Shown piece after piece: positions 15,510 to 54,653 of a DNA stretch of 64,000 nucleotides. Both the position numbers and the translations under genes were made by a program. The notes below the pieces were generated by a model. That model worked only from the letters and a program-made list of their open reading frames with translations. It was not told where the DNA came from and ran no database searches. Source of the stretch: Lingula anatina (taxonomy: Eukaryota; Animalia; Brachiopoda); contig CM120649.1 in NCBI GenBank assembly GCA_051362555.1, positions 1,922,001 to 1,986,000 of the forward strand, written 5' to 3'. The number at the start of each line of letters is the position of its first letter. Position 1 is the stretch's first letter.

Positions 15510-15556
<47 letters not shown>

Positions 15557-25544: not shown

Positions 25545-28500
25545 TTCTGAAACAACTTCATATTAAAAGCAAATTTCCATTGGCAAAAACTTGTCGACTC
25601 TTTGGGATCGAGGGACAAGGTAAAACGACGGAGAGGGGGCGGATCGCAAAGCTTAACTTATTTCAAAGCACTTTAAACGCGTTTGCATATAATTCTTTCG
25701 ATAATTGTGCATGGAGCCGTCGTTAGTTCTGCGATCATACACATATATGATAACCTCGTATCCCCTGTTATGGAAACCATATGTGTTAATCACATTATTC
25801 ACCACGTTAGGTACACGTATATGTCGGATGCAGGGTATGTTGTATTAGAAATGCAGGGCATGTTGAATCAGTGAGGTAAACGAGTACACGAAGCACGTGT
25901 GGTTGCCAGCAAGTGCTTTTCATCAAGAACCCTATATGAACTAAATACGAGAACCTAAGGGAAACCCTTGTTTAAAAAAGCCCTGAAAATATCGCGCTGT
26001 AAAAGAAAAGCAGATTTGTAAGAAATAATATAAATATGGAACAGGAAATACATCTTTAATGTAAACCTCACTTTGCCCCCCCCCCCCTCCCACTTGACCC
26101 CAAGTCACCCGCACGACAATCCCCTTATATATACGCCGTTGGTTGGATATGACACATACATGTACTATATAACGTCTGTTAACTAGGGCAAATAGCACAA
26201 ACTCAAAGTATGGGCACAGAAATGTTGTTACAGACTACTATATCGGGCCCTGTAATCTGACATTACTCACGCAAAATGTAGTCCACGTTTGTCTAACAGC
26301 AGGTGAGTCTTTTTTTCTCGACACCCGGAAGCTTCATCAAACGCCACCTTTGTTTTACCCCCAAATAAGCAGGGCTTTACTTAGGCCTACTCATTATTGT
26401 CAATGTGATAAGTGCCAAAAACAAGGACGCCGGTAGCTATTAAGCGGAAAAAATAGAGCGCAAACTCACCTTTCTACAATCTCCTTACCTCTTGTCGTTT
26501 TTAGTCAACGTAAATGGCAGAGTTATAACAGAGAGGTAGACTTCCAGTGACCTCAAAAACCTTAAGTTTCAACCGGTCGATATCAACTATAACGTGACTT
26601 GAAACCACCTTCAATCCTGCTTTATACACATGTACCAGTTAACCTATTTATAGCCACGAGTGAAATGACCTCGTTCTTCAGGCTAAGCATTTACAATTGG
26701 GTCAAAATGTAGAAACTTTTATAGTCTTAAGGTCGTTATACGAAACATTTATGGAACTATGCGGTTTTCTATGTAGTTCATAAATATTTTAAAGTTGGGT
26801 ATTTCCATTTATAAAACACAGCACATGTGCATTATAGTAATGCTGGCTCTATGAACAAAATAGCACTAAATATGCAAAATGATAAAGCAAAAAAAAAGTT
26901 TGCATACACACCAAAACGTACCTCCAGGCTAAAATAGGTTACATGTATTATTATTATTGATAAATAATTCCAATCTTAGATAAACTCAGAAAATAAACAG
27001 CAGACCATATGCTGATATATCTTCCCTAGCTTTTGTCCTCAGCTTCACTGCCTTGCAACTTTTGACCAGGTTTTGCTACGCTTACACTGGTACAGTGCCG
27101 CCGGAATCTACCTTTACCAAAGGGCCGCAGGGACTCCCAACCCTGCGCTGCATGGTCGAACAATGGCTTGTTTCCTTGACAGTTCCCGAGTGATGGAGCT
27201 ATTTGAGGTACACATAAGAGTTTACCTCTGTTTTACATGCACCAATATAATCATGCCCAATTCCCGTGTCATCACACTGCGATCTGGCAAATATGCAAGG
27301 TAATAAACAAGACGCGCAAATGTTGGCCATGGTTTAAAACGGGCCATGTATATGGTGGAGGCAAATATGAGACAGTTGTACCATGTTTCTGTACCCGGCG
27401 TCCAGGTGTCCACCCCACCCCATCCCCCACCACACCCCCCTCCTACTGCGTGATAAGGCGCTTGGCCAATGAACAGAATGACCAGGGCAGCGAGATTACA
27501 TGCTTATTGTAAAATATGACTTTTAAAACTGCGGTACTGATACATTTCAAAGTATATCAGAGTGATCAAGACCATGGGAAATTGAAGAAAGCTGTTGTGA
27601 TTGGTTGACTGTTTTCTTTTTTTCTTGACACCCGCAACTGCCAACTGCCGTCTTTGTTTTATCACGACCCGGGACCCGATAAGCGTTCGTATATTTTGTT
27701 TGATCTCACAAGAGCGAGAAAGATAGAGAGAGTTGCGGTTTGTTTTACACTTATTAAAATCGCTTTTATTTTAAAATCATCACTAACCTCTACTGAACGT
27801 GGTGGATCTTATGAATTTTAAATGGATTTTAGATTTTAAGTAAATTAGTAATAAGTAGCAGTAACGGAAGTAGTAGCAGATGTTTTTGTTGTTGTTTGAG
27901 GGAGGGATCGCTGTCCTCTGGGTATTTGCCTTTATACGGCGGTGTTTTAAATACTTGTTTATAATTTACTCGTGACTGACCTTCCTTTTGAAAGTTTTCG
28001 TGTAGTCCAGGTTTGCCACAAAATTCGTTCGAAAGTTTTCTTGAGGTGTACGTGAATTGCATTCCACGCTATAAAAGTTTTATTTCAGTATTTGTACAAT
28101 GTCTTTTGGATAGGCTTATAACATTCGGTTTAATGATTCAGTGTTTTGCGGCTTCTCAAGGTTTGATTTCTTTTTTAAAAAGTTGGCTGGGTCCACTTTA
28201 TTCAACTATTTAACTGAAATTTTGTAAAATATTTAAAATCAAAATTCGTAACTAAGTTATGACAACTTTCCTTCATTTTGGCAGGAAAGGTCCCAGAAAA
28301 CGGATATTCATGGGGTAAGCGACACTTTTCCCATACTTTCTAACGACTAATAATACGTATCAACCTAACAATATAAAATTTTAAAAATAAAAAAGCAATA
28401 ACTCAAATTCCACTTTTTAACGATTTTTTTTTCAAATACAAAGTCCATGTTCATACTTGAACCCTAGACGTTTGGATATCGCAAGACTCGTGCTGTGACC

Positions 28501-29544
28501 TAGTTTAAACCAATTCATGTTGGCACGAAAAGACATTATGGAAGAAGAGGCTCAGACTGGTCCTTTGAAGACGGCAAAGGTTCAGTAAACACTTTCTCTG
28601 CCTCTTCAAGCTCACGTACTCCACTTCTACCCTGAGTCTACGGACACTATCAAGGTATCTTGTTCATTATACCTTTTCATGTGTTAGCTTTACAGTGCCC
28701 CTGAATAGTAGCGGCAATTTTGACCATCTGCCATTGAAAGGAACTGCTCCGCGGTGAATCTGCATTTGAATGTCATTAGTCCACAATGAAACGTAAAACA
28801 GGTTTAATTTTGCTTAATTTAATTGGATTTGCTGTATTTAAAATTTTAAATGAAAAATACATAGTGTTTTTTAAAGGAAAAAGATAATATTAATGTTTAA
28901 ATAGTTAATTGCTTATCTAAAAACATTATCTCCTGAAAATATAAACACATAACGCGTGCTTGCCATTTGCAAAGTTTGACAGCTATGGCCGATACCATAG
29001 TAAATAGTCGGTACACCAAAATCAGTTTGCCTCATTGTCAACGGTCATTATGCATAATATCTAGTAGTGTCGGTAATCAATGTGCGCAAAAGTCGCGCAA
29101 TTTTTATGGCATTAAGAGGAGATTAAGGTCATAAATAATGGCACACTAGCGAATGTTTTACGACGACGGATAAATCTATTTTCTTAAGCTCTGCTGAATG
29201 CATTGCAGTTCGAATTCAACATATTTTGCGTGTCAGGTCCTTGGATATTATCTATTTAAGATATATTCCCATATATATTATACAGTTTCACCCTTATCGC
29301 TCTTAAAGTGATCCAGATTCACAAGGATTCTCGCTCTTTCTCTTATAGTCTCGTATAATGTAACGTCCTGCAGTAAACCACATATAAGGTTATCTAGTAT
29401 GGCGACCACAGTCAATGCTCTTCCGAGGACGTCATAATCACAACCGGTATCTGTATTTTCCAGGTGGCCTTCCTTTCGGATTGTACTAGCTGTCCTGGTG
29501 CTTGCACAGCACTAACAAGTGCTTTCTAATAATTGCAGCGGAGA

Positions 29545-29655
29545 TCATGTTTTGTCACTGCTGCCTGAGCGCGATATTAATCCAGTGGTTTTCATCCCCA
29601 TAACTAGCGCCCTAACGAAAGCAATCATGGCTTCGTCTTTTTTATGCAGCAGTAT
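29545..29655 (-). pseudogene. Displaced original 3' end of the CARD-NB-ARC-TPR ORF beyond the Gypsy insertion
   Basis: Removing the element and one TSD copy continues the frame: ...CIGQELI-LLHKKDEAMIAFVRALVMGMKTTGLISRSGSSDKT* (TGA 29547-29545), which resembles the TPR unit (EMIEMGNADGAVDVLRRALAMNEKILG). Confidence 0.8.
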
Positions 29656-30269
29656 TGTAAAGGTCTCCGCTTTTCTGCCACCAGTGTACGGTTCTCTTAC
29701 TTCGCTGCCACCAACAAAACAAGGTCTCTGTTTTGTAAACTTTATTTCTACGAATAACTCTCAACACAAATGTACATGTTTCTGTATCTTTTACTAAACA
29801 CTGTCTCTATTCTTGCTGTACTGCTGTACTTCTAATTTAAACAACTGCAACTCAGCTACAATAAACTAACTGGAACTATATTGTGAAACTGACTCAAACT
29901 AAGTTGTGAAACTAAGTCTGACACTATACTCTCACTGAGTACTGCCACTATACTCTACAGTAACTCTAACTGAACTCTAACTGAACAACACTGCGAAGAG
30001 CAGCTGTATTTATACATTTCAAAAGTGGACGGCCTTGAATGGTTCACTGCTACTTTGACTGGCAGCCAGAGTAAAAGTGGACGGCCTTGAATGGTTGACC
30101 GCCAACCCCTCTACTGGACACCACAATCCCCTCTTTCGTAAACTGATACCACTTACAAGCCATTCCAACTTAAGGTTCAAAGTTCAACACACACAAGAAT
30201 GTAAACAAAAGGCTAAAGCTTACTGCGGCAATTTTACCATGAATTTTAAGGCTATGTAAAATCGTTACA
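29656..30269 (-). repeat. 3' LTR
   Basis: tgtaaagg...cgttaca, matches 36074-36687. On the element strand it contains TATA-like TATAAATA and AATAAA; it also has a 24-bp internal direct repeat aaaagtggacggccttgaatggtt. Confidence 0.95.
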
Positions 30270-30281
30270 CTCTTCCCCCCT
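30270..30281 (-). other. Polypurine tract (PPT)
   Basis: AGGGGGGAAGAG on the minus strand, abutting the 3' LTR. Confidence 0.85.
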
Positions 30282-30556
30282 AGGTCTGATCCCACCGGGG
30301 ATCTGTCCCAGCAAAGTACAAAAATCAGTTAAAACTAAAAATATTCTGAAACATTTAAACAGTTAAAATTCAGTCAGTTCATAAAGTTCATTCAATAGTT
30401 CAGTGTCACTTTGATTAAATAAAATTACTCTTAAGTTCAACATTGGGTTAATAATGATAATCATTTAAAGTTCATAGTCTGATTCATAATAATGTTCACT
30501 TTAAAGTTCAAAGTCTGATTAATAATAATGTTCATTTTAAAAGTTCATTGTCACAG

Positions 30557-33500
30557 TCAATCAGCAAATCTCTTGGGAGGTCTTCTTTTCCTTTGTGGTC
30601 TTCCCTCATTTCTCAAATTACTGTCGGGTTGGTTCTTGGGTACTTGCACTTGTTTAGATTGACCACTCTGCTTCATCCTGTGTTTGATGGCACTTCCCTC
30701 ATGTTTCAGTGGACTGCCTTCTACATAATTACCTTTATGTACACATTTCTGCAAACTTGACACCCAATCTGGAACTTGGTCACTTAAAAATGGCTTAAGA
30801 CGGTCATGGTGCACGATCTTCATTTTACACTTAGGCTTGCCTTTCACTGCAAACAACAAATCACTGTGCTTTTTGACAACAACAAAAGGTCCTTGCCATT
30901 TATCACGTTTCAGCTTTGGGCTCAGTCCCACTGTTCTAGTGCTATCTAGTAAGAACACCAAGTCACCAACTTTATAGTTATTTTGCGAAATACGGGTGTC
31001 ATGGTCTCTTTTCTGCCTTTGAAAGTCCTTTTTCAAATGCAATCTCACTATTTCATGAATTCTAGTCATTTTCTCTTGCAACATTTTGACATACTCTGAA
31101 GGAGACGTCACAGATCGGTCTTCTGGTGGTTTTCCAAAGATCAGTTCTGTAGCTGTGTGAACTTCTCTGCCTAACATAAGCAAATTAGGGGAATAACCAG
31201 TGCTTTCATGTTTACAGCACCTGTATGCTGCAGTCAATAAAGGCAAATGAATGTCCCAATCCCGTTGGTCTTCTGACACATAAGCTGATATCATGTCACA
31301 TAACACAATATTGAATCTCTCCACCATTCCATTTCCTGAGGGATGATAGCTGGATGTTCGGGTTTTATTTATTTCTAATACTTGACATACTTGTTTGAAT
31401 AACTGTGACTCATAGTTGCTACCTTGGTCTGAATGGAGATCAAGGGGTAGGCCAAATCTAGAGAAAAACTCTGTCACTAGCTTGTGTGCTACAGTTTTAG
31501 CTGATATGTCAGGGATGGCATAGCACTCCACCCATTTGGAAAACTGGTCCATTGCTAAAAGAATATATTTATTGCCTCTTTCACTGACTGGAAAAGGTCC
31601 TAAGATGTCTGTTGCCACTCTGTCCATGGGAGCGCCTACAGCATATCTTAACAAAGGAGCCTTGGGTCTTGACCGTGGTCTTTTTCTACCACCACAAATA
31701 GCACATCTTCTTATGTAATCTCGCACACTTTCTTTCATCTTGTACCAGTAAAAGTGTCTTTTCAACTTGCTCACTGTTTTCTTGACACCAAGGTGACCCG
31801 ACGTGACTTTGTCATGTACGCCCTTCATCACCTCATTCCTCATCTCTTTCGGAACCAATATCTGTAAAAAGGAACCTGTCTTATCTAACGTTTCCCATCT
31901 CTTATATAAAATGCCCTCCCGCAGCACAAGTTGGTCCCAAAGCAACCATAACTGTCGCACTGCAGGACTTTCTGCGGCCACTTTATCTCTTTCTGGTCTC
32001 TGTGATGACTGTTCCTTCCAGTCCAACACAGTCTTCAACTCAGGGTCTTTACGCTGCAAATTAAACAATTCATTCACAGTGTAACTGCCCAGCCACTCGG
32101 CTGGAAGTCTATCTCTGTCACTCTCAGATTCACTGAGATCTGTATCTTCATCACCATGAGAAAAATCTTGATCCTTGAATGTCAAGTTTTCTCTAGGCAG
32201 CACTTCCTTTTTCTTGGAAACTCTCATCCTTCGAAGAGAAAGTGCTCTAACTTCCTTAAAGATACACTTGAATTTCATGGTCACCCAGCTCAGGATTGCA
32301 AAGAACAATGTCAGTAGGATGTAAAGGCCTGTCAATAAAACTGAACCAGCTGCTGTATACACACGTTTTACTGGACATTTTCCTTGGTTTCCCGATACTT
32401 GACCACTGCCACAGACTCCCTTGTCTGATTTTAGTTCTTTCTTTCGGTTTTCTGTCACTCGTCTGGTTACTAAAGGGACGACTTCTTCTTCCAGATATCT
32501 GGACCATTGTTCATGTTTCTTCTTACACTGTACGCAACCCTCGCATGGCAATTTGCTTAAAATGGACTCCCCATCATAGCATGTACACTCATCTGGGTCG
32601 CATGGAAATCTCGATATTGCATCTGCGTTACCGTGTCTGGCCCCTGCTCGGTGTTCTATTTTAAAATCATACTGTGATAGCACTTCCAGCCATCTGGCCA
32701 TCTGATCATTGGGCTCCTTAAAAGACATAACCCATCGGAGGGCACTGTGATCACTTCGTACCAAAAACTGTCTACCCAATAAATGGTGTCTGAATTGTTG
32801 AACAAAGGTAACAACGGCAAGCAGTTCTTTTCTAGTCACGCAGTAACGGCGTTGAGTTTTCGTCAATGACTTACTTGCATACGCGACTGGTTTCTCTATT
32901 TCTTTCTGGGTCTTCTCACACCACTGTAACTGAGATAAAACGGCACCAATGCCCGTGGCTGAAGCATCAGTGTCAAGAATGTACAATCCTTCGTCTCTCG
33001 GATACGCCATTACCTCATTACCTGTAAGGGCACTTTTGAGGTCCTCAAATGCTGTCTGACAAGAGTCCGTCCAAGTAAACGCCTGGCCGGCCTGGAGCAG
33101 GTAATTAATTGGAGCAGCTCTTGTTGAAAATCCTTTAATAAATCTACGATAATACGAGCATAGTCCTAGGAAACTACGTACATCAGTCAGATTCCTGGGA
33201 ACTGGCCATTTCTTTATACAGTCTACCTTCTCAGGATCTGGTTTAACGCCATCTTGTGTCACTACATGTCCCAAAAACTGAACTTCAGTCTGGAACAACC
33301 TGCATTTGCTTGGCTTCAGTTTTAGCCCTGCTTTTCCAAGACGAATAAAAACCTCGTCAAGTCTCTTATAGTGTTCTTCAAACGATTTACCAAACACAAT
33401 AATGTCATCAAGGTAAATCAACACTGTCTGCCACTGCAAACCACGTAAAATCAGTTCCATACACCGTTCGAAGGTTGAAGGAGAATTAGAAAGACCAAAA

Positions 33501-34885
33501 GGCATAACATTATATTCGTATAACCCATTTCTGGTCACAAATGCAGTCTTTGGCTTATCTTCTTCTGCTACCTCGATTTGATAATACCCGCTCTGGCAAT
33601 CAGCTATTGAGAAGAAAATTGAACCACCAAGAGAGTCTAAACAGTCATTTATTCGAGGTAGAGGGTAAGCATCTTTCACTGTTACATCATTTAAGCGTCT
33701 ATAGTCAACACAGGGTCTTGTTGTTCCATCCTTTTTCTTGACATAAACTAGTGGAGATGACCAAGGTGAGGTGGACTCTCTAATAACACCATTTTGGAGC
33801 TGTTCCTGAATTATTTTCTCTTCTTCCCCAGCAAACGCTCTAGGGGGTCTTCTGGGCTGCTGTTTTATGGGTCTTGCATCACCAGTGACAATCTTATGCT
33901 TTACGACAGATGTGTGACCCATGTCACTGGAAGACTTGGCAAAAACATCACTGTGCTTCTGCAGGAGTTTCTTTAGTTCACATCTTTCAAAGTCAGTCAA
34001 ATTCTCACCTGACTGTTTATAGAGGTCAGCCAGGTACTCAGGCAATTCTGGGCTATGAAGGGTTAAGTCTGACTTTTGTTTACCAGGGGTTAAGTCTGCT
34101 CGTAAGGTGGGCACAGAAAGGCTATCTTCAAGTTTATCACCAATCACATGGTCTACTTCATGTAAATGAGCAACGCAGGTGTCTTTCAAAAGTGAAATGT
34201 CTTCATTAGAAGGGTTAAGGAGTCTCACAGGTATTTTATTGTCTCTTCTGAAAGGATCAACTAGCACATGTCCGATCAGAAAATCACTTGACTTCTCTGG
34301 AATTGCCTCTACCAGTCCCAATCCTGATTTTATTTTGCTAGAATCAACTGTCCCTTCTATGATCAACTCACTGTTTGCAGGAATAATAACGTCATTAGTC
34401 ACTGTCACTCTAAAGGCATGCTTTGGTTCCCTCTCAACCAAACAGGGCACTCTCTTCCCATTAAGTTTCAGTCCGTTCACACCCAGTGAAAAATCATGAT
34501 GGCACAGGAAGTCCATTCCTAACAAACCATCGTCCCTTATTTTTGCTACAAGCATGTCCCATACAAACATTTCTTCGCCAGACTGAAAACTTATTTCTAC
34601 ATGGCCTTCAATTTCAATGTTTCTACTGTCTGCAACCTGCAACTGCAATTTTCTATGAGTCTTTTTCAGTTCAGGTCTAAAATCATGGGGAATTTGTTCA
34701 TAAATGTGGGTAGATATAATTGTTTTTGACGCACCAGTGTCTACAATAAAGTTCACTTCTTGGTCCCGAATCTTCACTGGCCAAGAAACACTAGCATTTC
34801 TACAACTGATGGTTTCAATGTCACTGCCAACAGGTGTTTTTAGGGGTTCATTCTGGCCGGCTGGAATGCCCCTTCTCAGTTTCCC
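30557..34885 (-). CDS. pol: Gypsy Pol polyprotein (aspartic protease, RT, RNase H, integrase), probably expressed as Gag-Pol by -1 frameshift
   Basis: IVDTGAS (PR); SPWSSP, CVDYRRLN, MPFGL, YLDDII (RT); LDTDAS, KELLAVV, SDHSAL, HGNADAISR (RNase H); HDKVTSGHLG...CAIC, DILGPF, HSDQG, GNGMVERFN (IN); no stops. Confidence 0.95.
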   Translation of the reverse strand, partial: GKLRRGIPAGQNEPLKTPVGSDIETISCRNASVSWPVKIRDQEVNFIVDTGASKTIISTHIYEQIPHDFRPELKKTHRKLQLQVADSRNIEIEGHVEISFQSGEEMFVWDMLVAKIRDDGLLGMDFLCHHDFSLGVNGLKLNGKRVPCLVEREPKHAFRVTVTNDVIIPANSELIIEGTVDSSKIKSGLGLVEAIPEKSSDFLIGHVLVDPFRRDNKIPVRLLNPSNEDISLLKDTCVAHLHEVDHVIGDKLEDSLSVPTLRADLTPGKQKSDLTLHSPELPEYLADLYKQSGENLTDFERCELKKLLQKHSDVFAKSSSDMGHTSVVKHKIVTGDARPIKQQPRRPPRAFAGEEEKIIQEQLQNGVIRESTSPWSSPLVYVKKKDGTTRPCVDYRRLNDVTVKDAYPLPRINDCLDSLGGSIFFSIADCQSGYYQIEVAEEDKPKTAFVTRNGLYEYNVMPFGLSNSPSTFERCMELILRGLQWQTVLIYLDDIIVFGKSFEEHYKRLDEVFIRLGKAGLKLKPSKCRLFQTEVQFLGHVVTQDGVKPDPEKVDCIKKWPVPRNLTDVRSFLGLCSYYRRFIKGFSTRAAPINYLLQAGQAFTWTDSCQTAFEDLKSALTGNEVMAYPRDEGLYILDTDASATGIGAVLSQLQWCEKTQKEIEKPVAYASKSLTKTQRRYCVTRKELLAVVTFVQQFRHHLLGRQFLVRSDHSALRWVMSFKEPNDQMARWLEVLSQYDFKIEHRAGARHGNADAISRFPCDPDECTCYDGESILSKLPCEGCVQCKKKHEQWSRYLEEEVVPLVTRRVTENRKKELKSDKGVCGSGQVSGNQGKCPVKRVYTAAGSVLLTGLYILLTLFFAILSWVTMKFKCIFKEVRALSLRRMRVSKKKEVLPRENLTFKDQDFSHGDEDTDLSESESDRDRLPAEWLGSYTVNELFNLQRKDPELKTVLDWKEQSSQRPERDKVAAESPAVRQLWLLWDQLVLREGILYKRWETLDKTGSFLQILVPKEMRNEVMKGVHDKVTSGHLGVKKTVSKLKRHFYWYKMKESVRDYIRRCAICGGRKRPRSRPKAPLLRYAVGAPMDRVATDILGPFPVSERGNKYILLAMDQFSKWVECYAIPDISAKTVAHKLVTEFFSRFGLPLDLHSDQGSNYESQLFKQVCQVLEINKTRTSSYHPSGNGMVERFNIVLCDMISAYVSEDQRDWDIHLPLLTAAYRCCKHESTGYSPNLLMLGREVHTATELIFGKPPEDRSVTSPSEYVKMLQEKMTRIHEIVRLHLKKDFQRQKRDHDTRISQNNYKVGDLVFLLDSTRTVGLSPKLKRDKWQGPFVVVKKHSDLLFAVKGKPKCKMKIVHHDRLKPFLSDQVPDWVSSLQKCVHKGNYVEGSPLKHEGSAIKHRMKQSGQSKQVQVPKNQPDSNLRNEGRPQRKRRPPKRFAD
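34843..34885 (-). promoter_or_regulatory. Predicted -1 programmed ribosomal frameshift signal
   Basis: Slippery heptamer G GGA AAC (34885-34879) directly before the gag TGA, followed by hairpin GGGGCATTC...GAATGAACCCC; pol overlaps gag in the -1 frame. Confidence 0.75.
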
Positions 34886-36003
34886 TGGTTGTTTACATGC
34901 TGAGCCTCTTTCACAGGTGCCTTGCATTCTCTTGCCAGATGCCCATATCTATGGCACTTGAAACACTCTATGTTGTTTTTCCAATTTTCTGACTTGGGTG
35001 ATGGAGGACTTTTCGTGTCTTTTGCTTTCTCTTTCAATATCAAATCTTTTATTTCATCTAACTTCTTGTCAAACTTCTTTTCAAGCTGGTGTAGCTGACT
35101 TTCTGTTACAACAGCTTCAGGATTTGCTGCCCTAACACTTGGTCTTTTCACTGCCTCTTCTCTTAGACTGTTATACATTTCAAGGGCCTCCCTTGCTTCG
35201 TCTAGATTTTTGGGCGTTTTCATGCCCACTGCCACGGCGGCTTGATGGTCTGGCAACCCTTTTATGAAATGGCGCAGTGCGATGGTCTCACGGGTGGTGC
35301 AGTCAGCCGTCGGGTAACCTTTTAACACCAACTTTCTAATATCGGAGATGTACTCTGGCAATTTCTCTCTTGGACTAAGCTTTCTATTCTCTAGCTCTGA
35401 TAGATAGGAGCTTGTAGTACGCTTTTCTTGAAATCGGTTTTGCAACGCCCTCTGTAGCAGAGGGTAGGAATTTACCACTTCTGCTGACAACTGCACAAAG
35501 GCGAAATCAGCAGCCTCACCACGCAGACTGTTACATAATCTAAACAGTTTCTCAGACTCACTCCATTCACAAGTCTGGCTTAGTGCTTTGAATGGCTCAA
35601 TGAAACCCTCCCAGGATTCTTTTCCACTAAAGAGAGTCTGTCTGGGCAAAGGTATTTCAAAGTTACTACGGCCATTAATTCTGTGAAATGGGGTAAGTGT
35701 AGGGGTTATTGTTTCTGATATGGGTTCATTCTGGGCTCTGTGTTCTATTTCTGTCTCTTTCTGTCGCTCTAGGGCTCTGACTCTCTGTTCTGCAGCCTCA
35801 GCACGTGCCTCTAAGATGTCCGCATTTTCTTTTGCTTTTCTAATTAATCTTTCTTTCTCTGCCTCTGCTTCTTCTACAGCATTTTGTAATCTGTGAGTAG
35901 AATTTTCTTTTTCAGCTTCAAGAGCTCTGCAGGCTTCTTCTAACTGTTCCTCCAGGTTTCTCACTTCCTCCTGGTCAGATCTGTTGTCCTTTTTAGGAGG
36001 CAT
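34876..36003 (-). CDS. gag: Gypsy Gag (375 aa) with N-terminal coiled coil and CCHC zinc knuckle
   Basis: FSGKESWEGF..W..EK..L..SLRGEA capsid-like motifs; CFKCHRYGHLAREC knuckle. Confidence 0.92.
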   Translation of the reverse strand: MPPKKDNRSDQEEVRNLEEQLEEACRALEAEKENSTHRLQNAVEEAEAEKERLIRKAKENADILEARAEAAEQRVRALERQKETEIEHRAQNEPISETITPTLTPFHRINGRSNFEIPLPRQTLFSGKESWEGFIEPFKALSQTCEWSESEKLFRLCNSLRGEAADFAFVQLSAEVVNSYPLLQRALQNRFQEKRTTSSYLSELENRKLSPREKLPEYISDIRKLVLKGYPTADCTTRETIALRHFIKGLPDHQAAVAVGMKTPKNLDEAREALEMYNSLREEAVKRPSVRAANPEAVVTESQLHQLEKKFDKKLDEIKDLILKEKAKDTKSPPSPKSENWKNNIECFKCHRYGHLARECKAPVKEAQHVNNQGN

Positions 36004-36053
36004 TTTGAATTTCTTGATTTCTTGAGCTTTTCTCTTGGCGTGTTAAAGTCTGT

Positions 36054-36072
36054 ATCCCAGCGCTTGCCACCA
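36054..36072 (-). other. Primer binding site, tRNA-Leu-like
   Basis: TGGTGGCAAGCGCTGGGAT one base after the 5' LTR; resembles the complement of tRNA-Leu 3' ends (...ATCCCACCGCTGCCACCA). Confidence 0.7.
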
Positions 36073-36073
36073 G

Positions 36074-36687
36074 TGTAAAGGTCTTCGTTTTTCTGCCACC
36101 AGTGTACGGTTCTCTTACTTCGCTGCCACCAACAAAACAAGGTCTCTGTTTTGTAAACTTTATTTCTACGAATAACTCTCAACACAAATGTACATGTTTC
36201 TGTATCTTTTACTAAACACTGTCTCTATTCTTGCTGTACTGCTGTACTTCTAATTTAAACAACTGCAACTCAGCTACAATAAACTAACTGGAACTATATT
36301 GTGAAACTGACTCAAACTAAGTTGTGAAACTAAGTCTGACACTATACTCTCACTGAGTACTGCCACTATACTCTACAGTAACTCTAACTGAACTCTAACT
36401 GAACAACACTGCGAAGAGCAGCTGTATTTATACATTTCAAAAGTGGACGGCCTTGAATGGTTCACTGCTACTTTGACTGGCAGCCAGAGTAAAAGTGGAC
36501 GGCCTTGAATGGTTGACCGCCAACCCCTCTACTGGACACCACAATCCCCTCTTTCGTAAACTGATACCACTTACAAGCCATTCCAACTTAAGGTTCAAAG
36601 TTCAACACACACAAGAATGTAAACAAAAGGCTAAAGCTTACTGCGGCAATTTTACCATGAATTTTAAGGCTATGTAAAATCGTTACA
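36074..36687 (-). repeat. 5' LTR
   Basis: 614 bp; identical to the 3' LTR except at 36085 and 36088. Confidence 0.95.
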
Positions 36688-39600
36688 GTATCAATTCTTG
36701 ACCTATGCAGTGCAGTGTATTGGCTGTACTGAAACACTCACCCAGCACTTCCTCCTTTATACGAAGAGCTCTCTGATATGTACTAAGAGCCTCTGCGTGG
36801 TTTCCCTGTGCAGATATGGCACGAGCTAATTCATGTATTGTGGCTACTGTCTGTTCGTGATATTCTCCAAGTATCTTCTCCTCCATAGCCAAAGCTTTCC
36901 TGAGGACTTCCACAGCACCCTTTGCATTGCCCATCTCCATCATTTCATAGCCCATGTTACGCAGTGTATTGGCTGTACTATGACTTTCACCCAGCACTTG
37001 CTCCTGTATAGGAAGAGCCCTCTGGTATGTACTAAGAGCCTCTTCTTGGTTTCTCTGTGCAGATATGGCAAGAGCTAATATATGTATTGTAGCTGCTATC
37101 TGTTCGTGGTATTCTCCCAGTATCTTCTCCTCCATAGCCAAAGCTCTCCTGAGGACATCCAGAGCACCGTCTGCATTGCCCATCTTTATCATTTCCTGAC
37201 CCATGCTATACAATGTAATGGCTGTACTGCGACTTTCACCCTGCACTTGCTCTAGAATACGAAGAGCTCTCTGGTATGTACTAAGAGCCTCTTCGTGGTT
37301 TCCCTGTGCAGATATGGCACGAGCTAATACATGTATTGTGACTGCTGTGTGTTCGTGATATTCTCCCAGTATCTTCTCGTTCATAGCCAAAGCTCTCCTG
37401 AGGACATCCACAGCACCGTCTGCATTGCCCATCTCTATCATTTCCTGACCCATCTTATACAGTGTAATGGCTGTACTGCGACTTTCACCCTGCACTTGCT
37501 CCAGAATACCAAGAGCTCTCTGGTATGTACTAAGAGCCTCTTCGTGGTTTCCCTGTTCAGATATGGCACGACCTAATTCATATATTGTGGCTGCTGTGTG
37601 TTCGTGATATTCTCCCAGTATCTTCTCGTTCATAGCCAAAGCTCTCCTGAGGACATCCACAGCACCGTCTGCATTGCCCATCTCTATCATTTCCTGACCT
37701 ATGCAGTGCAGTGTATTGGCTGTACTGCGACTTTCACCCAGCACTTGCTCCTGTATACGAAGAGCTCTCTGGTATGTACTAAGAGCCTCTGCGTGGTTTC
37801 CCTGTGCAGATATGGCACCAGCTAATTCATGTATTGTGGCTGCTGTCGGTTCGTGATATTCTCCCAGTATCTTCTCCTCCATAGCCAAAGCTTTCCTGAG
37901 GACATCCACAGTACCCTTTGCATTGCCCATCTCCATCATTTCATAGCCCATGTTACGCAGTGTATTGGCTGTACTTTGACTTTCACCCATCACTTGTTCC
38001 TTTATACGAAGAGCTCTCTGGTATGTACTAAGAGCCTCTGCATGGTTTCCATGTGCAGATATGGCACGAGCTAATTCATGTATTGTCGCCGCTGTCTGTT
38101 CGTGATATTCTCCCAGTATCTTCTCCGCCATAACCGAAGCTCTCCTGAGGACGTCCACAGCACCGTCTGCATTGCCCATCTCCATCATTTCCTGACCCAT
38201 GCGACACAGTGTAATGGCTGTACTACAACTTTCACCCAGCACTTGCTGCAGTATACGAAGAGCTCTCTGGTATGTAGTAAGAGCCTCTGCGTGGTCTCCC
38301 TTTTCAGACATGGCACGTGCTAATGTATGTATTGTGTCTACTGTGCTTTCGTGATATTCTCCAAGTATCTTCTCCTCCATAGCCAGAGCTCTCCTGAGGA
38401 CGTCCACAGCACTGTCGGCATTTCCCATTTCAATCATTTCTAGACCCATGTAGTGCAGTGTATTGGCTGTACTCTCACTTTCACCCAGCACTTGCTCCTT
38501 TATACGAAGAGCTCTCTGGAATGTAGTAAGAGCCTCTGCGTGGTCTCCCTTTTCAGACATGGCACGTGCTAATGTATGTATTGTGACTACTGTGCTTTCG
38601 TGATATTCTCCAAGTATCTTCTCCTCCATAGCCAGAGCTCTTCTGAAGACGTCCACAGCACCGTCTGCATTGCCCATCTTTATCATTTCCTGACCCATGC
38701 GACACAGTGTAATGGCTGTACTACGACTTTCACCCAGCACTTGCTCCAGTATACGAAGAGCTCTCTGGTATGTAGTAAGAGCCTCTGCGTGGTCTCCCTT
38801 TTCAGACATGGCACAAGCTAATACGTATATTGTGACTGCTGTCTGTTCGTGATATTCTCCCAGTATTTTCTCCTTCATAGACACAGCTCTCCTAAGGACG
38901 TCCACAGCACCGTCGGCATTTCCCATCTCCATCATTTCATCACCCATGTAGTGCAGTGTATTGGCTGTACTCTCACTTTCACCCAGCACTTGCTCCTTTA
39001 TACGAAGAGCTCTCTGGAATGTACTAAGAGATTCTGTGTGGTTTCCCTGTGCAGATATGGCACGAGCTAATTCATGTATTGTCGCCGCTGTCTGTTCGTG
39101 ATATTCTCCCAGTATCTTCTCCGCCATAACCGAAGCTCTCCTGAGGACGTCCACAGCACCGTCTGCATTGCCCATCTCCATCATTTCCTGACCCATGCGA
39201 CACAGTGTAGTGGCTGTACTCTCACTTTCACCCAGCACTTGCTCCTTTATACGAAGAGCTCTCTGGTATGTAGTAAGAGCCTCTGCGCGGTCTCCCTTTT
39301 CAGACATGGCACGTGCTAATGTATGTATTGTGACTACTGTGCTTTCGTGATATTCTCCAAGTATCTTCTCCTCCATAGCCAGAGCTCTCCTGAGGACGTC
39401 CACAGCACCGTCGGCATTTCCCATTTCAATCATTTCTAGACCCATGTAGTGCAGTGTATTGGCTGTACTCTCACTTTCACCCAGCACTTGCTCCTTTATA
39501 CGAAGAGCTCTCTGGAATGTAGTAAGAGCCTCTGCGTGGTCTCCCTTTTCAGACATGGCACGTGCTAATGTATGTATTGTGACTACTGTGCTTTCGTGAT

Positions 39601-42600
39601 ATTCTCCAAGTATCTTCTCCTCCATAGCCAGAGCTCTTCTGAAGACGTCCACAGCACCGTCTGCATTGCCCATCTTTATCATTTCCTGACCCATGCGACA
39701 CAGTGTAATGGCTGTACTACGACTTTCACCCAGCACTTGCTCCAGTATACGAAGAGCTCTCTGGTATGTAGTAAGAGCCTCTGCGTGGTCTCCCTTTTCA
39801 GACATGGCACAAGCTAATACGTATATTGTGACTGCTGTCTGTTCGTGATATTCTCCCAGTATTTTCTCCTTCATAGACACAGCTCTCCTAAGGACGTCCA
39901 CAGCACCGTCGGCATTTCCCATCTCCATCATTTCATCACCCATGTAGTGCAGTGTATTGGCTGTACTCTCACTTTCACCCAGCACTTGCTCCTTTATACG
40001 AAGAGCTCTCTGGAATGTACTAAGAGATTCTGTGTGGTTTCCCTGTGCAGATATGGCACGTGCTAATTTATGGATTGTGGCTGCTGTGGTTTCGTGATAT
40101 TCTCCCAGTATCTTCTCCTGCATAGCCAGAGCTCTTCTGAGGACATCCACAGCATCGTCTGCATTGCCCATCTTTATCATTTCTAGACCCATGCTATACA
40201 GTGTACTGGCTGTACTACGACTTTCACCCAGCACTTGCTCCTGTATACGAAGAGCTCTCTGGTATGCTCTAATAGATTCTGCGTGGTTTCCCTGCGCAGA
40301 TATGGCACGAGCTAATGAATATATTGCGATTGCTGTCCGTACGTGGTATTCTCCCAGTGTCTTTTCGCTCATAGACGTAGCTCTTTTAAGAGCAACTATG
40401 GCCTCATCTATATCTCCGGCAACACTCATGATAAAACCCATGTGCGTGAGATTTTTAGCAGTGTAAGGATGTTCGCCATAGCATTCCTCTGCTAAATCAA
40501 CTGCCCGTTTGTGTAATGGCAATGATTCCTTATTTTTCCCAATGACACACAAAGCTACGGTTGCACCTTTTAAAGCAACCACATCCACTCCGTCTTCCTT
40601 ACCATCTGTCGCGGGGTTTGCATTAAGTATGTCATGCAAGGTAGATATAACGGCCTCCTTTTCTCCTCGTCTAGCTTTGATTACTGCCATTCCGGCCTGT
40701 GCAAGATATTTCATACTTAAATCGCGATGAGCAACAGCCTTGTCAAAAGTGTTGTTCAGTATATCGAGGCAATGTGCATAATTTTTTTTTGATTCCTGCA
40801 GCTGTAATGTCAAATAATAACAGCACTTACAGTATTGTTTGTAATTACATCGTCCATCTTGTTTCTCATACATCTCTTTTGCTTTAGACAAACATTTAAC
40901 GGAAGCGGATACATTTCTAAGTTCCGCGTACAGATAACCTGTATTATAATACAAAAATGCTAGGTCAAAATGGTCACTTTGTTCTCCCTGCTGTATAGCG
41001 GTGTTTAGGGCGAGTTTGAAACATCTGAGAGAATCGACTATCCTGCCTATCTGTCTTAGACTGAAGGCCAATTTTTTGGCAATGCTGCATGTTACTTTCT
41101 TTGAGATTGGGTGCATTGTCTTAAAAATATCAATACAGGCCAGATAAACATCCTTGTCTTTTTCAAACAATTTTGTTGCGTGGCGGATATTCTCTGTTTC
41201 AGCAAATGCGTACATCTCATTTATTCTATGCTCCATATATATCATGAATATCTGTTTGAATTGATCCATATTTTCTTTGGAAGCCTGTTCTCGTGCAAAT
41301 GCCTGAATAACACTATGCATAGTATACGTCCCGTTGGCTGCATCATACCCCAGAAACGAAGCATCACAAAGAGTTTGTAGACAAGTTCTGCAATCAAACA
41401 TAGTAAGACTAATTTGATGCTTTCTCAAAAGTGTAAATGCATCATCTGCGTTAAAGCTTGTTGGAAAAAGAGACAGTATTTGAACTGATTCTTGCATTTC
41501 CAGGCCCAAGAGCTTATAAGACAGGTTAATACAAGCAGCAGCGTCTAGGTGCTTGGGTGTTGAAGGTGAACGTTTTAGGGCAAATACCGTTTTTGAGGTT
41601 AGCTCCTCGATTATATCAATTGTTCTGTGACCTTGGCGCAGTAAGTAGCCAAGAATATGAAGCAGCAGTGCTACAAAGCCACATTTTTCACCCAAGTGTT
41701 TGCCGTCTTCACGACACAAATTTTGTGAATACGACTCCAACACGTCGCACGATTCATCCGCTGTCAGAGAATCAAGATTGTGAATAGGTACCACTTCGTT
41801 TGGTAACTGAATAACACGGCGAGTTGTACATAAAATGTAGGTGTTGTTACAGTAAGTTACCAATCGCTGTAGCATGGTATAGAAATGTTTCTGTGTATTG
41901 TCCTGGAGGGCACTCTCACAGTTGTCTAGTATGATGAGCATTTTTTTGCCGTACGACGATATCTCTTGACAGGCCTTGGTTATTAGACGATCAGCGTTGG
42001 TGTCGTCACTGCTTAACCTTGCTGATGATTTTAAAGTAAGAAGGGACAAAGGAATATCGTCTGCAAATGAAGCATTATCCATGTCAGCCACAGCTGAACG
42101 TATTTCTTGACAGGCGTTGGCTATGAGACGATCAGCGTTGGTGTCGCCACTGCTTAACCCTGCTGATGATTTTAAAGCGAGAAGAAGGGACAAAGGAATA
42201 TCATCTGCAAATGAAACATTCTTCAAGTCAGCCATGATTGAACGTATTCCCCACTTTGACACAAAGGTGTGGCCTATTACGGTTGCCAAAGCGGTCTTAC
42301 CTTGACCTCCAAAAGATTTTATTACAGCAAGGCGACGCATGTCCTGAAGAAATATGTCTATTAGCTTCTTGACATCTTCAGCGCGTCCCACAAAGCACGC
42401 CGGTTGCTGTGGTAAAGAGCACGTCTCCAGAACGGACCCTAAAAATATAACTCATGATGACATATTCACAGATAAACAGTATAGACACATTTAGACGTAA
42501 CTGAAATAAACGCTGACAGGGTTAAATTGGCAATATAAACCCAAAGAATGATACCTATTACATTGTACAAATTGAAAATATTTATAACATATTATTAGCC

Positions 42601-43232
42601 TGACCAACAATTTGACAGAGATGTCATTCGATTTCACAACAAACTAGGGGTGTGCTTTCAACAGTATATGGAATATTTTGTGACCGCATTCAGATTCAGA
42701 CATCTCATCCGCCAAGTCAACCTATGTCTGCGGCGATTCTGGCTAAAGTGCAGTCAATGTAATAAGCTTAATTGCCTGGCCTGCCTTTACCCTTGAGCTG
42801 CTCGAGCAGGCGTGTCAGGCATTTAAGCTGATAACGTTAGCTGCACTTAAGTGAAAATAACTACAGAGTGTCTGAATAGGAATGCTCCCAATGAGTTAAA
42901 CAAAGTCTAAAATTACTTATTCGCTTTTGTTTGTCTTCCTCTGTCACTGACGTGTTCAGAAGCCCAGTCACGAGCCACGCGTAATCTTCCTGGAGACAGG
43001 TGAGAAGCTGGTCAAATTTCTGGTTGTCTCCAGTAAGCAGAAGATTCAACAACTTTTGGGTTTGTTTCAAACGTGTTGGTTCCTGCAGGATGTCTTCACA
43101 TTGTGTGGTAGTTATCACGTCAGCCGTGATGAGTCTTTCAGATATATCCCTAACATCAAGATCTTTACATATAGCTTCCCAGTTTTTCTGTATCCTGATC
43201 TGGTTCTCTAGTGTTATTGGATAGGATGCCAT
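36683..43232 (-). CDS. CARD - NB-ARC (STAND ATPase) - TPR-repeat NLR-like protein, ~2,023 aa; coding exons 43232-42917 and 42438-36683 (stop supplied by the LTR)
   Basis: Exon 1 (ACCATGG context) encodes a CARD-like domain (IQKNWEAICKDLDVRDISERLI..TRLKQTQKLLNLLLTG..KFDQLLTCLQEDYAWLV). Donor A|gtaatt joins tag|GG in frame to LPQQPACFVGR, Walker A SFGGQGKT, Walker B LIILDNCE, sensor-1 ILCTTR, INLSY, LSLFP, MHD-like YTMHSVIQ, then ~30 TPR-like repeats. Confidence 0.88.
36688..40500 (-). repeat. Coding tandem array: 249-bp (83-aa, two-TPR) unit x ~15, with a 996-bp higher-order duplication
   Basis: Fifteen LGEYH-anchored units alternate with GES/GEC units; antisense ORFs recur at 249/498/996-bp spacing; block ~38068-39063 is nearly identical to ~39064-40060. 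Confidence 0.95.
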
Positions 43233-44405
43233 GGTTCTGCAATATCGAAAACAAAATCCAATCGTTAGCGTCTTGCGTATGAAGTGTACCAATTCTCAAA
43301 TTAGGGCCATCTCAGAAAAGCCATTACTCGACCAAATCATGCATGGTTTTACGCTTTCTCTGGAGAGGGCAATCTGGGATGGTTCCCTTTGCAAGGTAAA
43401 TACAGGTAGTATTCCAATACATAGCAACACTCTCTCTCACCATACGCACTACATCCCATGCTGAGTAGAAGTGAATGGATCTTAAATCAAAATATGATTC
43501 ACAAAACTGGAATTCTGTAAAATAGACTCTTGTTGTTCCAGAAACAATGTGTGATGTTTTATACGATCTTCGACGCATTCTAAATGTATTCATATCCCCA
43601 CTCATACCAAACCACAATGTGCTTTAAATAAAACAATTTCATGTCAAACTTATTATCGAGGTAAACTTTTACCAAGTCATTTTGTAATACTACCAATTTA
43701 TTATTTTTTCACTGTTTTACTTGTTATTCCCACGACAATAAAAGGCCGTAACGTCTTTTCCTTTCCCTAAAATTGTAAGGATTATGTGATAATGTGATAT
43801 GGTGCATGTTTCGTCCTATTTTGCATAATTATTCTCTGAAATCAATGAAACATTTAGAAATATGTTGGAAATTTATCGTCAAAACAGACAATTTTCCTCC
43901 AATTTGTCATTCTTTGACGAGCTAATATTTTAATCAATAAACTTATCTACACCTTACATGATAAAGCGTGACCATATTGCTACAAGTGCTCGAAAAAAGA
44001 TCGAATATGTAATGGATTTAGATATGCGACTGTCATACGTTCATTTATGTTTTCGTGGAAATTGAGATGACACACAAAAGAATGCAGAGATTCACTATGA
44101 ATGGTATGGTTGAATAAAACATCCATAATAGCAGAGGATATTAATGGTAAAATCCATGGTAAAAACTCTTAGAAACCTTACACATAAGATGATATTTTAA
44201 ATAGCCTAATATTATCTCTCTGTTTAAATTATCATCGATCACTATCACGTACAGTGTATGAAACCCCAAGGCAAATCCCCTCTTGGGTTATTTCTTAATC
44301 CACTATTCTATTATGCGCACATTACATGCACTTTAACTTACAAAATGCAATTTTAAGTATAAGTAACAATTTTAATACATCTATTGAATACTTAGTTGCT
44401 GTTAA

Positions 44406-51091: not shown

Positions 51092-54000
51092 TTAAAACGA
51101 GTCGTGTATGGCGTGGAGGCAAAGATGGCGGACCTGGAAAAATAAATTGAAACAATGTAATAAATGGTTGCTCCACTGACGTACCTGATGGATAGGTGCA
51201 AATTTTTTTATTAATTTATTAAAATACGAGATTCGTTCTTTGTGAGAACAAATGGCAATTTTAACATTCAATAATAAAGAATTTTATTTCCCCTTGGACT
51301 TGTGTTCAAAATACTTTAAAACAAGTAAATGACAAGATTCAAGACAACGAAAAACCCTACCATATGTTCATGTAAAGCCACTTAGCTGACTCTAACTGTA
51401 ATATTTTAATTAAAAGTACTGAATGCACAAGTCAGTGCAAATTTTTTCTTACGTTCACACATGGCGGGGCACCGAGAGCAAAGGTCACGGCGGCAGCAAC
51501 ATCGTCTGGTTGAAGACACTAGCGTGAAATGATATTATAAAAGATAGATGATATTGAAGGGTGTATTCTCATATAAATATTAGATATTAAAATTGGTAAT
51601 TAAAGGATAAGAAAAAATTAAGAAAAATTAAGTGACGGAAACGTTAACCAAAATATTTACTATAAGACAATGACGAATTAACGGCACTTAAAGTGTCTTA
51701 TATATGGCCCAAAGGGCAGGGTGATTTATAGAAAGTAACACACAGAACACTAGTTAAATGGATTAATTACGTAAAAGAATTGCACATTAAAAGACTGAAG
51801 CATATCCTCAGTATTTTCGCTTATATTTCAATTTGATTCACTTTACATCCATTAAAATCCAAAAAGTCACGAAAAACTTTGTTTGTATCCGTATTCCAAT
51901 TATTTGGTACCGCAATTTCTGTTATTCGTGAAAGGCAAAGGGGATTAGATGATTGAAGAAGTTTGTCATAAAACCTGGGATTAAGCCACAACATTTTACT
52001 GAAGCTTACTGTTTCCGGACAGAAGAGGTTGTCGTCCATGTCTGCTCTTGCTTGCGGAGTGTCGACCAATCCAGGACTAATCACCTAACAGTAGAGCATA
52101 ATATTCCAATATTGGGTTACATTAACAAATTGTTATATAAATTTCACTAAAATCATATTTTGTAGCCGCCCATATACGGATTCTCGGGCGTTGCAAAAGA
52201 TGGGAAATAGAAGTAGGGGCCTATATACAAATGCGATTCTATTACTGTAAAATTGCAAATTATTTATTTACTTCAATTGCCTTATTATTTTGTTAATTTT
52301 CTCCTCTAAGTTATCTCCTACTGTAAATAAGCAGTCACTGACTGGACTGTGATTTCTCCTTAATATGTACATTTAATCTCTCTCTCATACCGTCGTCCGT
52401 ATTTTCGTTTTCTGTTGTCTCAGCTCGTGTCTCAGACCCTCTGTGAAAGCCTTCAGGGCACACTTTGCTGGGGTATACATGTGACATGAAAAGTCCGCGT
52501 GGACAGCGCTCTCACAAACACTAATTAAATAGAACATACTTGTCAGAAACGATAACATGATAATCTTCCCAAAGCCATTTCAACGGTATGAAAGGCCGAG
52601 TAGCTGCCTTTGCCTGCAATATCACAATTTTATGGGAGTTTTAACCATTTGGGGAATGAATTTTTACCCATTCGCACTAGGTACCAGTGTGCCATATGCG
52701 TTTTTTAAGCCCGGTGTCACATTTTGGTACGTTGTATATCGAATTTTCAATAACTAATTATGGACCTGAATAGGCCATTTACTTGGGAAACGTGGTAAAG
52801 ATACATGTGTATTTTGTTTGAAAGCAATGTATTACCTGCCAATGTTAATAATGTGCCCATCATTCGTGTTCCTCTCGAGTATGGACTGGATAGTCAGCTG
52901 GGAAACAGCTATAGCAGCGAAAACATTTAACTGAAAAAAAAATTGTTTTATTCGAAAGGTCGTCATTGGTTAAAGGTATATCAGGATATAAAACGACAAG
53001 TTGTATTCATTTTTTACTGTAGAGTCCCTGATGACCATTGTTGAAGTCTGAGGCATTTTTGTCTTACTTTGAGTATCAGCTAAGAAGAAGGTTAACGTTG
53101 TTCATGCAGAGCATAAGATAAGCATTCATTTAGACATGTGGCAAAAATTCCATTACTGAGCATATACGCATAAGCTATTAGACCGGGCTCCCATACTAAG
53201 ATCGATCTTACAGGATCGATCCATCTCCAAAGGGTAGTTCTCCCTAAATCACTTTCAGCTTAATCGGCTTAGATGGCTGGCACGTCTATACTGAAGCTGC
53301 TAAACGAAAGTTAATTACCCCCGAACTTAACGCTCTGTTAATATACAGCTTGAGAAGAAATACAAGGGTGGGATGCAGGCAGTAATTTTAATTGAGAAAT
53401 AAACAATTTTTAACAAGAAACCTTGAATACTCAACAAAACTAAAACCCCACATTCTTAAATAAACACTAGCGATTCAAGGAACAGACGTAAGCAGAAAGA
53501 ATATTTCCTCGGGATATAGATTCAGAATACGTCGTGAAAAGTTCTGTTTTGCAGCGAAAAATATTTTTAAGCATTACAAACGCCATTACACCCGAGTTCT
53601 GGTGCTTAAAGATAAATGGCTAAAGGCTTCTAAAGGAAAAATAAAAAATAAATAAGAGTTGTCTTACATCATACATCGTCTTGGTATCAGATAAAGGCCC
53701 TGTCGTGCAATCCTGACAGAGATTAACACCTGCGTTGTTAACACAAACGTCGACACCACCCAACTGTTCCTTGATTTCTTGAAACATGGACTCTATCTCT
53801 TCCGTTTTGGTGAGGTCGCACTTCATTGGAATCAAACGACCCTTTTCGATTTCAAGAAGTGCAGCTGTTTTCTGGAATACATATATTAAAACATCTCTTC
53901 AACAAAAGGATTAGTTAATCATTCGTGATTCATTGTCTTACCGTAGCACTGAACGAAACGGAGGGAAATGTTTAAGTGATTTTGACGCTCAATTGCCAAT

Positions 54001-54290: not shown

Positions 54291-54345
<55 letters not shown>

Positions 54346-54599: not shown

Positions 54600-54602
<3 letters not shown>

Positions 54603-54649: not shown

Positions 54650-54653
<4 letters not shown>

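Follow-up and report, generated by a model that had tools for sequence, protein, structure and literature searches.

Gene structure and domain architecture

We analyzed a 64,000-nucleotide stretch of the genome of the brachiopod Lingula anatina (assembly GCA_051362555.1, contig CM120649.1, positions 1,922,001 to 1,986,000 of the forward strand). We call this stretch the window, and all positions below refer to it. On its minus strand lies a gene whose product joins an N-terminal CARD, an ATPase of the STAND (signal transduction ATPases with numerous domains) class and a long array of tetratricopeptide repeats (TPRs), and whose 3' end is interrupted by a retrotransposon (Table 1). The first-pass annotation of this DNA had described two coding exons, a CARD, an NB-ARC-type ATPase and about 30 highly similar TPRs. 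The exons, the CARD and the repeats were borne out by our analysis, while the ATPase assignment needed qualification.

Joined in phase 1, the two exons give 6072 nt encoding 2023 amino acids and a single stop. There is no internal stop or frameshift across these 2023 codons, and the frame stays intact for 5.7 kb although its repeats turn over heavily. Both the STAND module and the TPRs are encoded in the second, intron-free exon. The splice is supported because an alignment of the N-terminus to annotated L. anatina proteins runs gap-free across the junction 42917/42438; over the spliced N-terminal 218 residues, identity to three such proteins (P0001-P0003) is 53-57%, with one gap position. A pyrimidine-rich tract at 43233-43260 (minus strand), whose terminal CAG is four bases away from the start codon, suggests an additional non-coding exon upstream.

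When we searched the spliced protein for Pfam families, CARD, TPR_12 (1e-88) and TPR_10 (3e-54) were found, but the NB-ARC family was not. The CARD (PF00619) match covers residues 14-91, with an E-value of 3.6e-12 and 46.6 bits (cut-off 23.9). The best sequence match of exon 1 in the PDB is the CARD of Apaf-1 (E 0.0012), and when exon 1 is compared with three L. anatina paralogs, identity to their N-termini is 51-59%. All five motifs on which the initial description relied are present, namely LPQQPACFVGR, SFGGQGKT, LIILDN, TTR and MHS. The CARD-STAND-TPR architecture of this gene is thus real. A tblastn search within the 64-kb window found neither a second nucleotide-binding domain (NBD) nor a similar CARD.

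Table 1. Positions of the gene's parts and of the inserted element within the window.
Feature	Position	Strand	Description or basis
Coding exon 1	42917..43232	minus	316 nt, GT after; start codon and CARD, residues 14-91 (~43193-42960)
Intron, 478 nt, GT-AG, phase 1	42439..42916	minus	sequence; spliced translation collinear with P0001-P0003
Coding exon 2	36683..42438	minus	AG before; within one uninterrupted 1922-codon frame
Diverged NB-ARC-type STAND module (predicted; NBD, helical domain, winged helix)	41280..42438	minus	alignment, profile, fold
Tandem duplication of ~141 nt (47 aa) in NBD, before Walker B	41960..42248	minus	self-BLAST
Helical arm and degenerate TPR-like hairpins, from STAND module to conserved array	40355..41279	minus	model, weak TPR_12
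Conserved TPR array, all in one exon	36688..40354	minus	14 full 249-nt units and a partial 15th
Ty3/gypsy long terminal repeat (LTR) retrotransposon in last TPR	29656..36687	minus	LTR pair, target duplication, gag, pol
LTRs	36074-36687 and 29656-30269	minus	614 nt each, 612/614 identical, TG...CA
gag	34876-36042	minus	element frame
pol	30557-34948	minus	domain order: protease, reverse transcriptase, RNase H, integrase
Native C-terminus of 34 codons (final TPR helix plus a short tail), stop 29547-29545	29545..29649	minus	in frame with pre-insertion codon

The ATPase module

The ATPase had been called NB-ARC-type from its motifs. This copy has no match to Pfam NB-ARC (PF00931), and its match to NACHT reaches only E 0.046, which is below the cut-off. 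We assign it to the NB-ARC type because of its relatives, a profile search and its predicted fold, and not because of a Pfam match of its own. Among the relatives, the paralog P0005 lies above the PF00931 cut-off (26.4 bits versus 23.5), and its CARD, NB-ARC and TPR matches all clear their Pfam thresholds. Pfam NB-ARC is missing from the precomputed domains of the three nearest full-length paralogs. The Walker A motif, SFGGQGKT, lies at 42316-42293, and Walker B (LIILDN) and TTR fall in conserved columns of the alignment. The MHD position reads MHS, and across the relatives its histidine is conserved and its aspartate variable.

The profile was built from an ATPase alignment (A1) of 23 sequences, including three AfsR-like rows. 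With it, a search of the PDB retrieved AfsR (1e-46) as well as NRC4, Roq1 and Apaf-1 (each about 1e-24), while the single ATPase sequence retrieved AfsR alone, at E 0.14. A predicted model of 778 residues has a mean pLDDT (predicted local distance difference test) score of 87.8. For this model, Foldseek ranks PH0952, an archaeal STAND-TPR protein, highest (E 7e-13), and VIA-align ranks murine Apaf-1 highest (3sfz; Z 28.0, root-mean-square deviation 4.0, 398 aligned); the comparison with NRC1 gives Z 25.2. The ATPase is therefore predicted to be an NB-ARC-type STAND module with an Apaf-1-like fold. The region that connects it to the conserved array is all-helical in the model, has a weak TPR_12 match and aligns with the paralog P0018.

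The NBD contains a tandem duplication whose copies are 87% identical over 148 nt. It is poorly modelled, since pLDDT drops at residues 94-102 and 115-144 of the model, and is predicted to loop out of the confident ATPase core. The duplication is probably not an assembly error because a contig from the DNA run X2 crosses its junction with 0 differences.

The TPR array and its evolution

Each 249-nt unit of the conserved array encodes 83 amino acids that form two TPRs (42+41 aa), and the array holds 29.5 TPRs in total. Units 2-5 recur as units 6-9, in a 996-nt block with 18 differences (98% identical in DNA); this block duplication could alternatively be an artefact of assembly. Pairwise identity among units averages 78% at the amino acid level, and 39 of the 83 unit columns are invariant. 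Identity to the majority residue averages 84% (78-92%), and the criterion used for highly conserved fungal repeats is about 85% over at least 100 aa. In a recombination test resembling the pairwise homoplasy index (13 unique units, 59 informative sites), 0 of 2000 permutations gave a value as low as the observed one. The repeat units exchange sequence by recombination.

We then considered where the units vary. Groove positions were placed on the units using what we take to be the TPR consensus register. The positions of a TPR that contact ligand are described as 2, 5, 6, 9, 12 and 13 (PMC1261162), and they were fixed before the test. At least three different residues occur at 7 of the 12 groove columns, as against 13 of the 71 others (p 0.006), so that the variation of the array is concentrated in the predicted groove. 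A set of hypervariable columns picked post hoc (omega, the ratio of nonsynonymous to synonymous rates, 2.1) was rejected as circular and replaced by the literature-fixed positions. In our own codon models, M2a is preferred over M1a with a likelihood-ratio test (LRT) statistic of 51.6 and an omega of 6.6 on 13% of sites, while the maximum LRT in 115 null simulations that include recombination through block-shuffled trees is 19.0. Non-groove positions have an omega of 0.59-0.66. With the qualifications given below, the evidence for positive selection is mixed, and we consider an adaptive cause of the groove variation likely. The repeat data also agree with the suggestion, made at first inspection, that the array resembles the TPR receptors of fungi with high internal conservation, in that its units recombine and their variation is focused on the groove.

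Relatives and phylogeny

The nearest named proteins are all from L. anatina and are called 'uncharacterized' in RefSeq: LOC106167851, LOC106167867, LOC106165459, LOC106162306 and LOC106159931. The first three of these are 42-43% identical to the window protein over the ATPase, and the four nearest paralogs span 42-58%. A CARD is found in paralogs P0001, P0002, P0003 and P0005; P0018 is a partial model. The DNA run X2 yields further contigs of 90-95% identity (33 of 50 placed), part of which is the repeat in the gene's intron. In the ESM Atlas, residues 1-470 of P0002 find a CED-4-like cluster first (0.98), which we treat as a lead only.

A HMMER search over 1.84 billion representatives returned 1083 relatives at E <=0.001, of which only 3 reach 1e-30. 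Beyond Lingula, those with names belong to bacteria, to the sponge Sycon and to the corals Porites, Orbicella and Dendronephthya. Some of the coral proteins contain near-identical internal blocks as well (P0192, 99/100), so conserved internal arrays are not unique to the Lingula gene.

We computed a quick maximum-likelihood tree of 79 ATPase domains, hand-picked from about 420 proteins and chosen without fungal, algal or Apaf-1 rows. The window protein groups with four Lingula paralogs (support 99), and all 12 named animal rows (the window, Lingula, corals and a sponge) are split from all 24 named bacterial rows with an SH-aLRT (Shimodaira-Hasegawa-like approximate likelihood ratio test) value of 96. 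An NB-ARC phylogeny against Apaf-1, fungal, algal and bacterial proteins had been proposed as a check; the bacterial part places the protein with animals, and the other three groups are not in this tree.

The tree bears on the possibility that the STAND-TPR exon is a recent horizontal acquisition, with a bacterium, a fungus or an alga as donor, or that the window is contaminated. One might suspect transfer because the STAND and TPR parts share a single intron-free exon and because AfsR is the best profile match in the PDB, with the AfsR-like rows noted above in that profile. However, the split between animal and bacterial rows, within the sampling of this tree, argues against this explanation, as do the spliceosomal intron, the location of the paralogs on long Lingula scaffolds, the spliced neighbouring genes and the presence of the sequence in the DNA runs. 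We regard transfer or contamination as very improbable.

P0142 is a CARD-NB-ARC-TPR protein distant from the Lingula family; in a search with it, the best 120 of 279 matches were either bacterial STANDs or unnamed rows, and none was a named protein from an animal. P0046 and P0017 form a second NB-ARC-TPR group in L. anatina, and P0046 has a DZIP3-type HEPN effector. A further set of NB-ARC relatives (P0004, P0016, P0024, P0027, P0035 and many others) has hydrophobic stretches at one or both ends and may span membranes. Some of these carry an N-terminal Death domain (P0053), and those members that are in the tree group on its animal side.

A retrotransposon in the last repeat

The last TPR is interrupted by a Ty3/gypsy element flanked by a 4-nt target duplication. 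The insertion is recent because its LTRs differ at only 2 of 614 sites, and the element is apparently uninterrupted. The same LTR occurs with other insertion flanks as loose ends in the DNA runs X1 and X2. The depth of LTR words is about 10-30 times that of the flank, which is not a copy number but suggests tens of LTR copies.

Beyond the element, the native tail matches the C-terminus of the L. anatina paralog P0018. In each of the DNA runs X1, X2 and X3, a contig with 4 differences passes from the native tail straight into TPR sequence, which marks either an element-free close paralog or a diverged allele. This gene copy has recently lost its last 34 residues, which include the last helix, and its 3' untranslated region (UTR) to the retrotransposon. 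The 3' flank of the gene (29192-29560) has contigs in X1 and X2 and none in X3; this gap is no proof in itself, but could reflect presence/absence variation or a diverged population.

Neighbouring sequence

The STAND gene and the retrotransposon sit between two dehydrogenase copies duplicated at a spacing of about 28.9 kb; exons of three short-chain dehydrogenase paralogs lie at 24637-25562 (minus), 53623-54734 (minus) and 57477-58359 (plus). A ROCO-type gene is represented by its 3' portion at 1-1641 and 2066-2401 (plus), where matches to COR-A and COR-B (E ~1e-6) precede an exon that encodes a CARD (E 4e-14). No similarity could be detected between this CARD (2066-2401) and that of the STAND gene, and the ROCO-type gene is a separate, unrelated signalling gene of the window that also bears a CARD. 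A PELP1-like gene, whose exons match RIX1 and PELP1_HEAT, spans ~10452-20887 (plus). Three tandem arrays, at 12536-13367, 13729-14967 and 17000-17481, repeat every ~161, ~337 and ~60 nt, respectively. At 5160-5843 (plus) is a lysine-rich frame of 227 codons that matches no Pfam family at E <=0.01.

Comparison with known systems

The Lingula paralogs share with the window gene the CARD-STAND-TPR order, a collinear CARD-NBD junction and the 83-aa repeat register, and LOC106159931 also shares the C-terminal helix encoded by the native tail. They differ in that their arrays are shorter and more degenerate (best 100-aa self-identity 25-80), and those that were aligned do not have the NBD duplication.

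It had been proposed that this architecture is foreign to animals. This view finds no support in the literature. TPR-ended NB-ARC or NACHT proteins have been reported as Apaf-1 homologs of marine invertebrates, of the amphioxus type, in which TPRs replace the WD40 repeats (Zmasek 2007, PMC2246300), in a coral review that describes about 500 NACHT/NB-ARC loci with CARD, DED and Death effectors and with TPRs among the repeats (PMC4083563), as 4 NB-ARC-TPR genes in Trichoplax (Kamm 2019, PMC6321704) and as NACHT-TPR genes in the pearl oyster (PMC9646362). Moreover, our tree places the ATPase alongside proteins of corals and a sponge. These invertebrate proteins have in common with the Lingula gene the STAND-TPR layout, lineage-specific expansion and death-fold effectors in the same repertoires. 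The nearest named relatives outside Lingula are the coral and sponge proteins; the four Trichoplax rows list no effector domain (PMC6321704). The gene therefore belongs to a known broad kind, the animal STAND-TPR protein with a death-fold effector.

The claim that the family is little described fared better. The RefSeq entries are uncharacterized, and our literature search found no description of this Lingula family, though Gerdol 2018 on Lingula immunity may contain one. A search on the term CARD-NB-ARC-TPR found nothing, and Hamada 2013, Lange 2011, or figures or supplements may name the triple. The main text of the animal STAND-TPR papers, as far as it was covered, neither names the combination of CARD, NB-ARC and TPR nor analyzes repeat diversification. 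As far as we have searched, the variant is undescribed in its CARD output, its ATPase that escapes Pfam, its recombining array that varies in the groove, and its occurrence in a lineage reported to be without Apaf-1.

Among more distant systems, the fungal NB-ARC/NACHT-TPR NOD-like receptors (NLRs) of the Podospora Pa_2_10340 type likewise combine a STAND module with near-identical tandem TPRs, whose units recombine and whose variable positions lie on concave helices. The fungal pattern was defined by Dyrka 2014 (PMC4986451), in the relevant part of which 0.8% of metazoan repeats of the ANK, TPR and WD types are strongly conserved. However, fungal effectors are HeLo, PNP_UDP or sesB domains, whereas the Lingula gene has an animal CARD; also, its repeat unit is a pair of TPRs, unlike that of the fungal NLRs, and the likeness implies no shared ancestry. 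The NB-ARC-TPR proteins of the brown alga Ectocarpus are also candidate receptors with shuffled TPRs, but there the shuffling is described at the level of exons (Zambounis 2012, PMC3341825), while the Lingula array lies entirely within one exon.

Apaf-1, CED-4 and Dark, too, begin with a CARD and continue with a fold of the NB-ARC type, and the fold resemblance to murine Apaf-1 was given above. However, Apaf-1 ends in WD40 propellers where the Lingula gene has a TPR solenoid, identity to Apaf-1, CED-4 and Dark is 14-16%, and the Lingula family is multi-copy and fast-evolving. The prokaryotic proteins PH0952, MalT and AfsR share the layout of NBD, helical domain, winged-helix domain, arm and TPRs, but have no CARD, have transcriptional or unknown outputs, and, as far as bacterial rows are concerned, stand apart in the tree. 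Relative to the definition of a bona fide animal NLR as NACHT-LRR (PMC3879445), the NACHT match here is below cut-off and the repeats are TPRs rather than leucine-rich repeats. In sum, the gene is like a fungal TPR NLR in the evolution of its sensor and like Apaf-1 at its output end, and is a member of neither family.

Proposed function

The gene belongs to a small family of CARD-STAND-TPR genes in Lingula. On balance, we think it somewhat more likely than not that these encode cytosolic innate-immune sensors whose CARDs would recruit a caspase or adaptor. In this model, the STAND module would be kept closed by the TPR solenoid as long as no ligand occupies the concave groove. Binding would then permit nucleotide exchange and release the STAND switch, leading to oligomerisation, and the oligomer would cluster the CARDs for recruitment of a CARD caspase or adaptor. 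That the ligand would be non-self, like each of these signalling steps, we infer from the biology of Apaf-1, plant NB-ARC proteins and fungal NLRs. Unequal crossing-over and conversion within the single large exon would reassort groove residues and so renew binding specificity, as in the Podospora TPR receptors.

It is important to consider a number of findings that weigh against this proposal. In the ATPase, the first Walker A glycine is replaced by serine, and the GxP (GLPL) motif has lost its proline and reads GFVAL; P0001-P0003 have GFMAL at this place, and P0005 keeps GHMP. None of the other 22 sequences in A1 has the 47-aa NBD duplication. The present stop of the gene, 36683-36685, lies within the first bases of the 5' LTR. 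The first-pass annotation had overlooked both the retrotransposon in the last codons and the ATPase duplication; each makes impairment of this copy more probable, and it may be weakened.

Expression data belong to the same side of the balance. We read about 6 in 100 of the RNA run X10, about 6 in 100 of X13 and about 25 in 100 of X16, which come from other samples and were used with no control gene. X10 and X13 gave no exonic reads; their 24 and 19 reads, respectively, all lie on the intron repeat. X16 gave 12 reads, of which 11 fit only partly, and some are exonic with several differences; these exonic reads more likely come from a close paralog than from this gene. X16 has no reads on the native tail. 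The spliced junction 42917/42438, for which RNA sequencing had been suggested as a check, was not seen in these portions of the three runs. Given their extent, the lack of a transcript of its own is weak evidence. The intron repeat (42680-42835) is a short dispersed repeat that attracts RNA reads from other loci, and it contains a joint of opposite strands at 42704/42833.

These observations raise the possibility that the family is functional but that this copy is a dying paralog whose array grew under relaxed constraint. The loss of the capping helix and 3' UTR, the duplication peculiar to this ATPase, the lack of reads clearly from this copy in any of the three RNA runs and an overall omega among units of 0.86 would all fit such decay. 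On the other hand, 2023 codons without a stop or frameshift, the non-groove omega of 0.59-0.66 and the 39 invariant columns argue against it. The duplication is modelled outside the confident core, the near-identity of the LTRs places the insertion recently, and the RNA runs were only partly read, in other samples and with no positive control. We consider decay of this copy a serious alternative, if a somewhat unlikely one.

The evidence for selection on the groove also has to be qualified. Once gamma rate variation across whole codons is allowed, the LRT drops to 10.2, which is within the range of the recombination null, although that null was itself run for the simpler test. The groove omega is 2.9 (p 2e-6) only under a shared synonymous rate and falls to 1.6 (p 0.17) when the groove has its own. 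Counts of very variable columns do not exceed a neutral-class null: out of 300 simulations, 228, 110 and 23 came up to the observed counts. It might be supposed that the protein senses an endogenous stress or developmental cue, as a substitute for the apoptosome, and that turnover of repeats produces the groove variation as a side effect, at surface positions under weak constraint. The non-significant groove omega would agree with this idea, and so would the fold and CARD, which are closest to Apaf-1, in a species reported to be without Apaf-1 (PMC11463336). However, a fixed self ligand leaves unexplained the fast divergence of the paralogs, the shuffling of the repeats and the concentration of variation in the groove. 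We find an endogenous cue improbable and retain the innate-immune sensor as our working interpretation.

In a bolder form of the sensor proposal, the brachiopod CARD-STAND-TPR family would be a platform for activating CARD caspases that renews its ligand specificity by recombination of near-identical TPR pairs under diversifying selection. We regard this more specific version as unlikely in its entirety, but it is relevant to what has been reported about the lineage. Brachiopods are reported to have lost Apaf-1 and caspase-2 and to have expanded caspase-Y to six paralogs: in Horkan 2024 (PMC11463336), Apaf-1 and caspase-2 were not detected in L. anatina, one of its six caspase-Y paralogs has a PARP pro-domain instead of a CARD, and CRADD is proposed as an activator. 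Similarly, no Apaf-1 was found in molluscs or annelids, as described by Krasovec 2023 (PMC10959488).

The architecture as such is not surprising. Nonetheless, the failure of Pfam NB-ARC on this copy shows why such candidates escape domain screens, and the array extends to an animal the diversification of receptors by repeat shuffling and groove variation that is familiar from fungi. The gene offers a concrete candidate for switching on CARD caspases in a lineage where Apaf-1 has not been found. If the activation platform were real, the family would be an animal counterpart of the fungal non-self receptors, wired to caspases.

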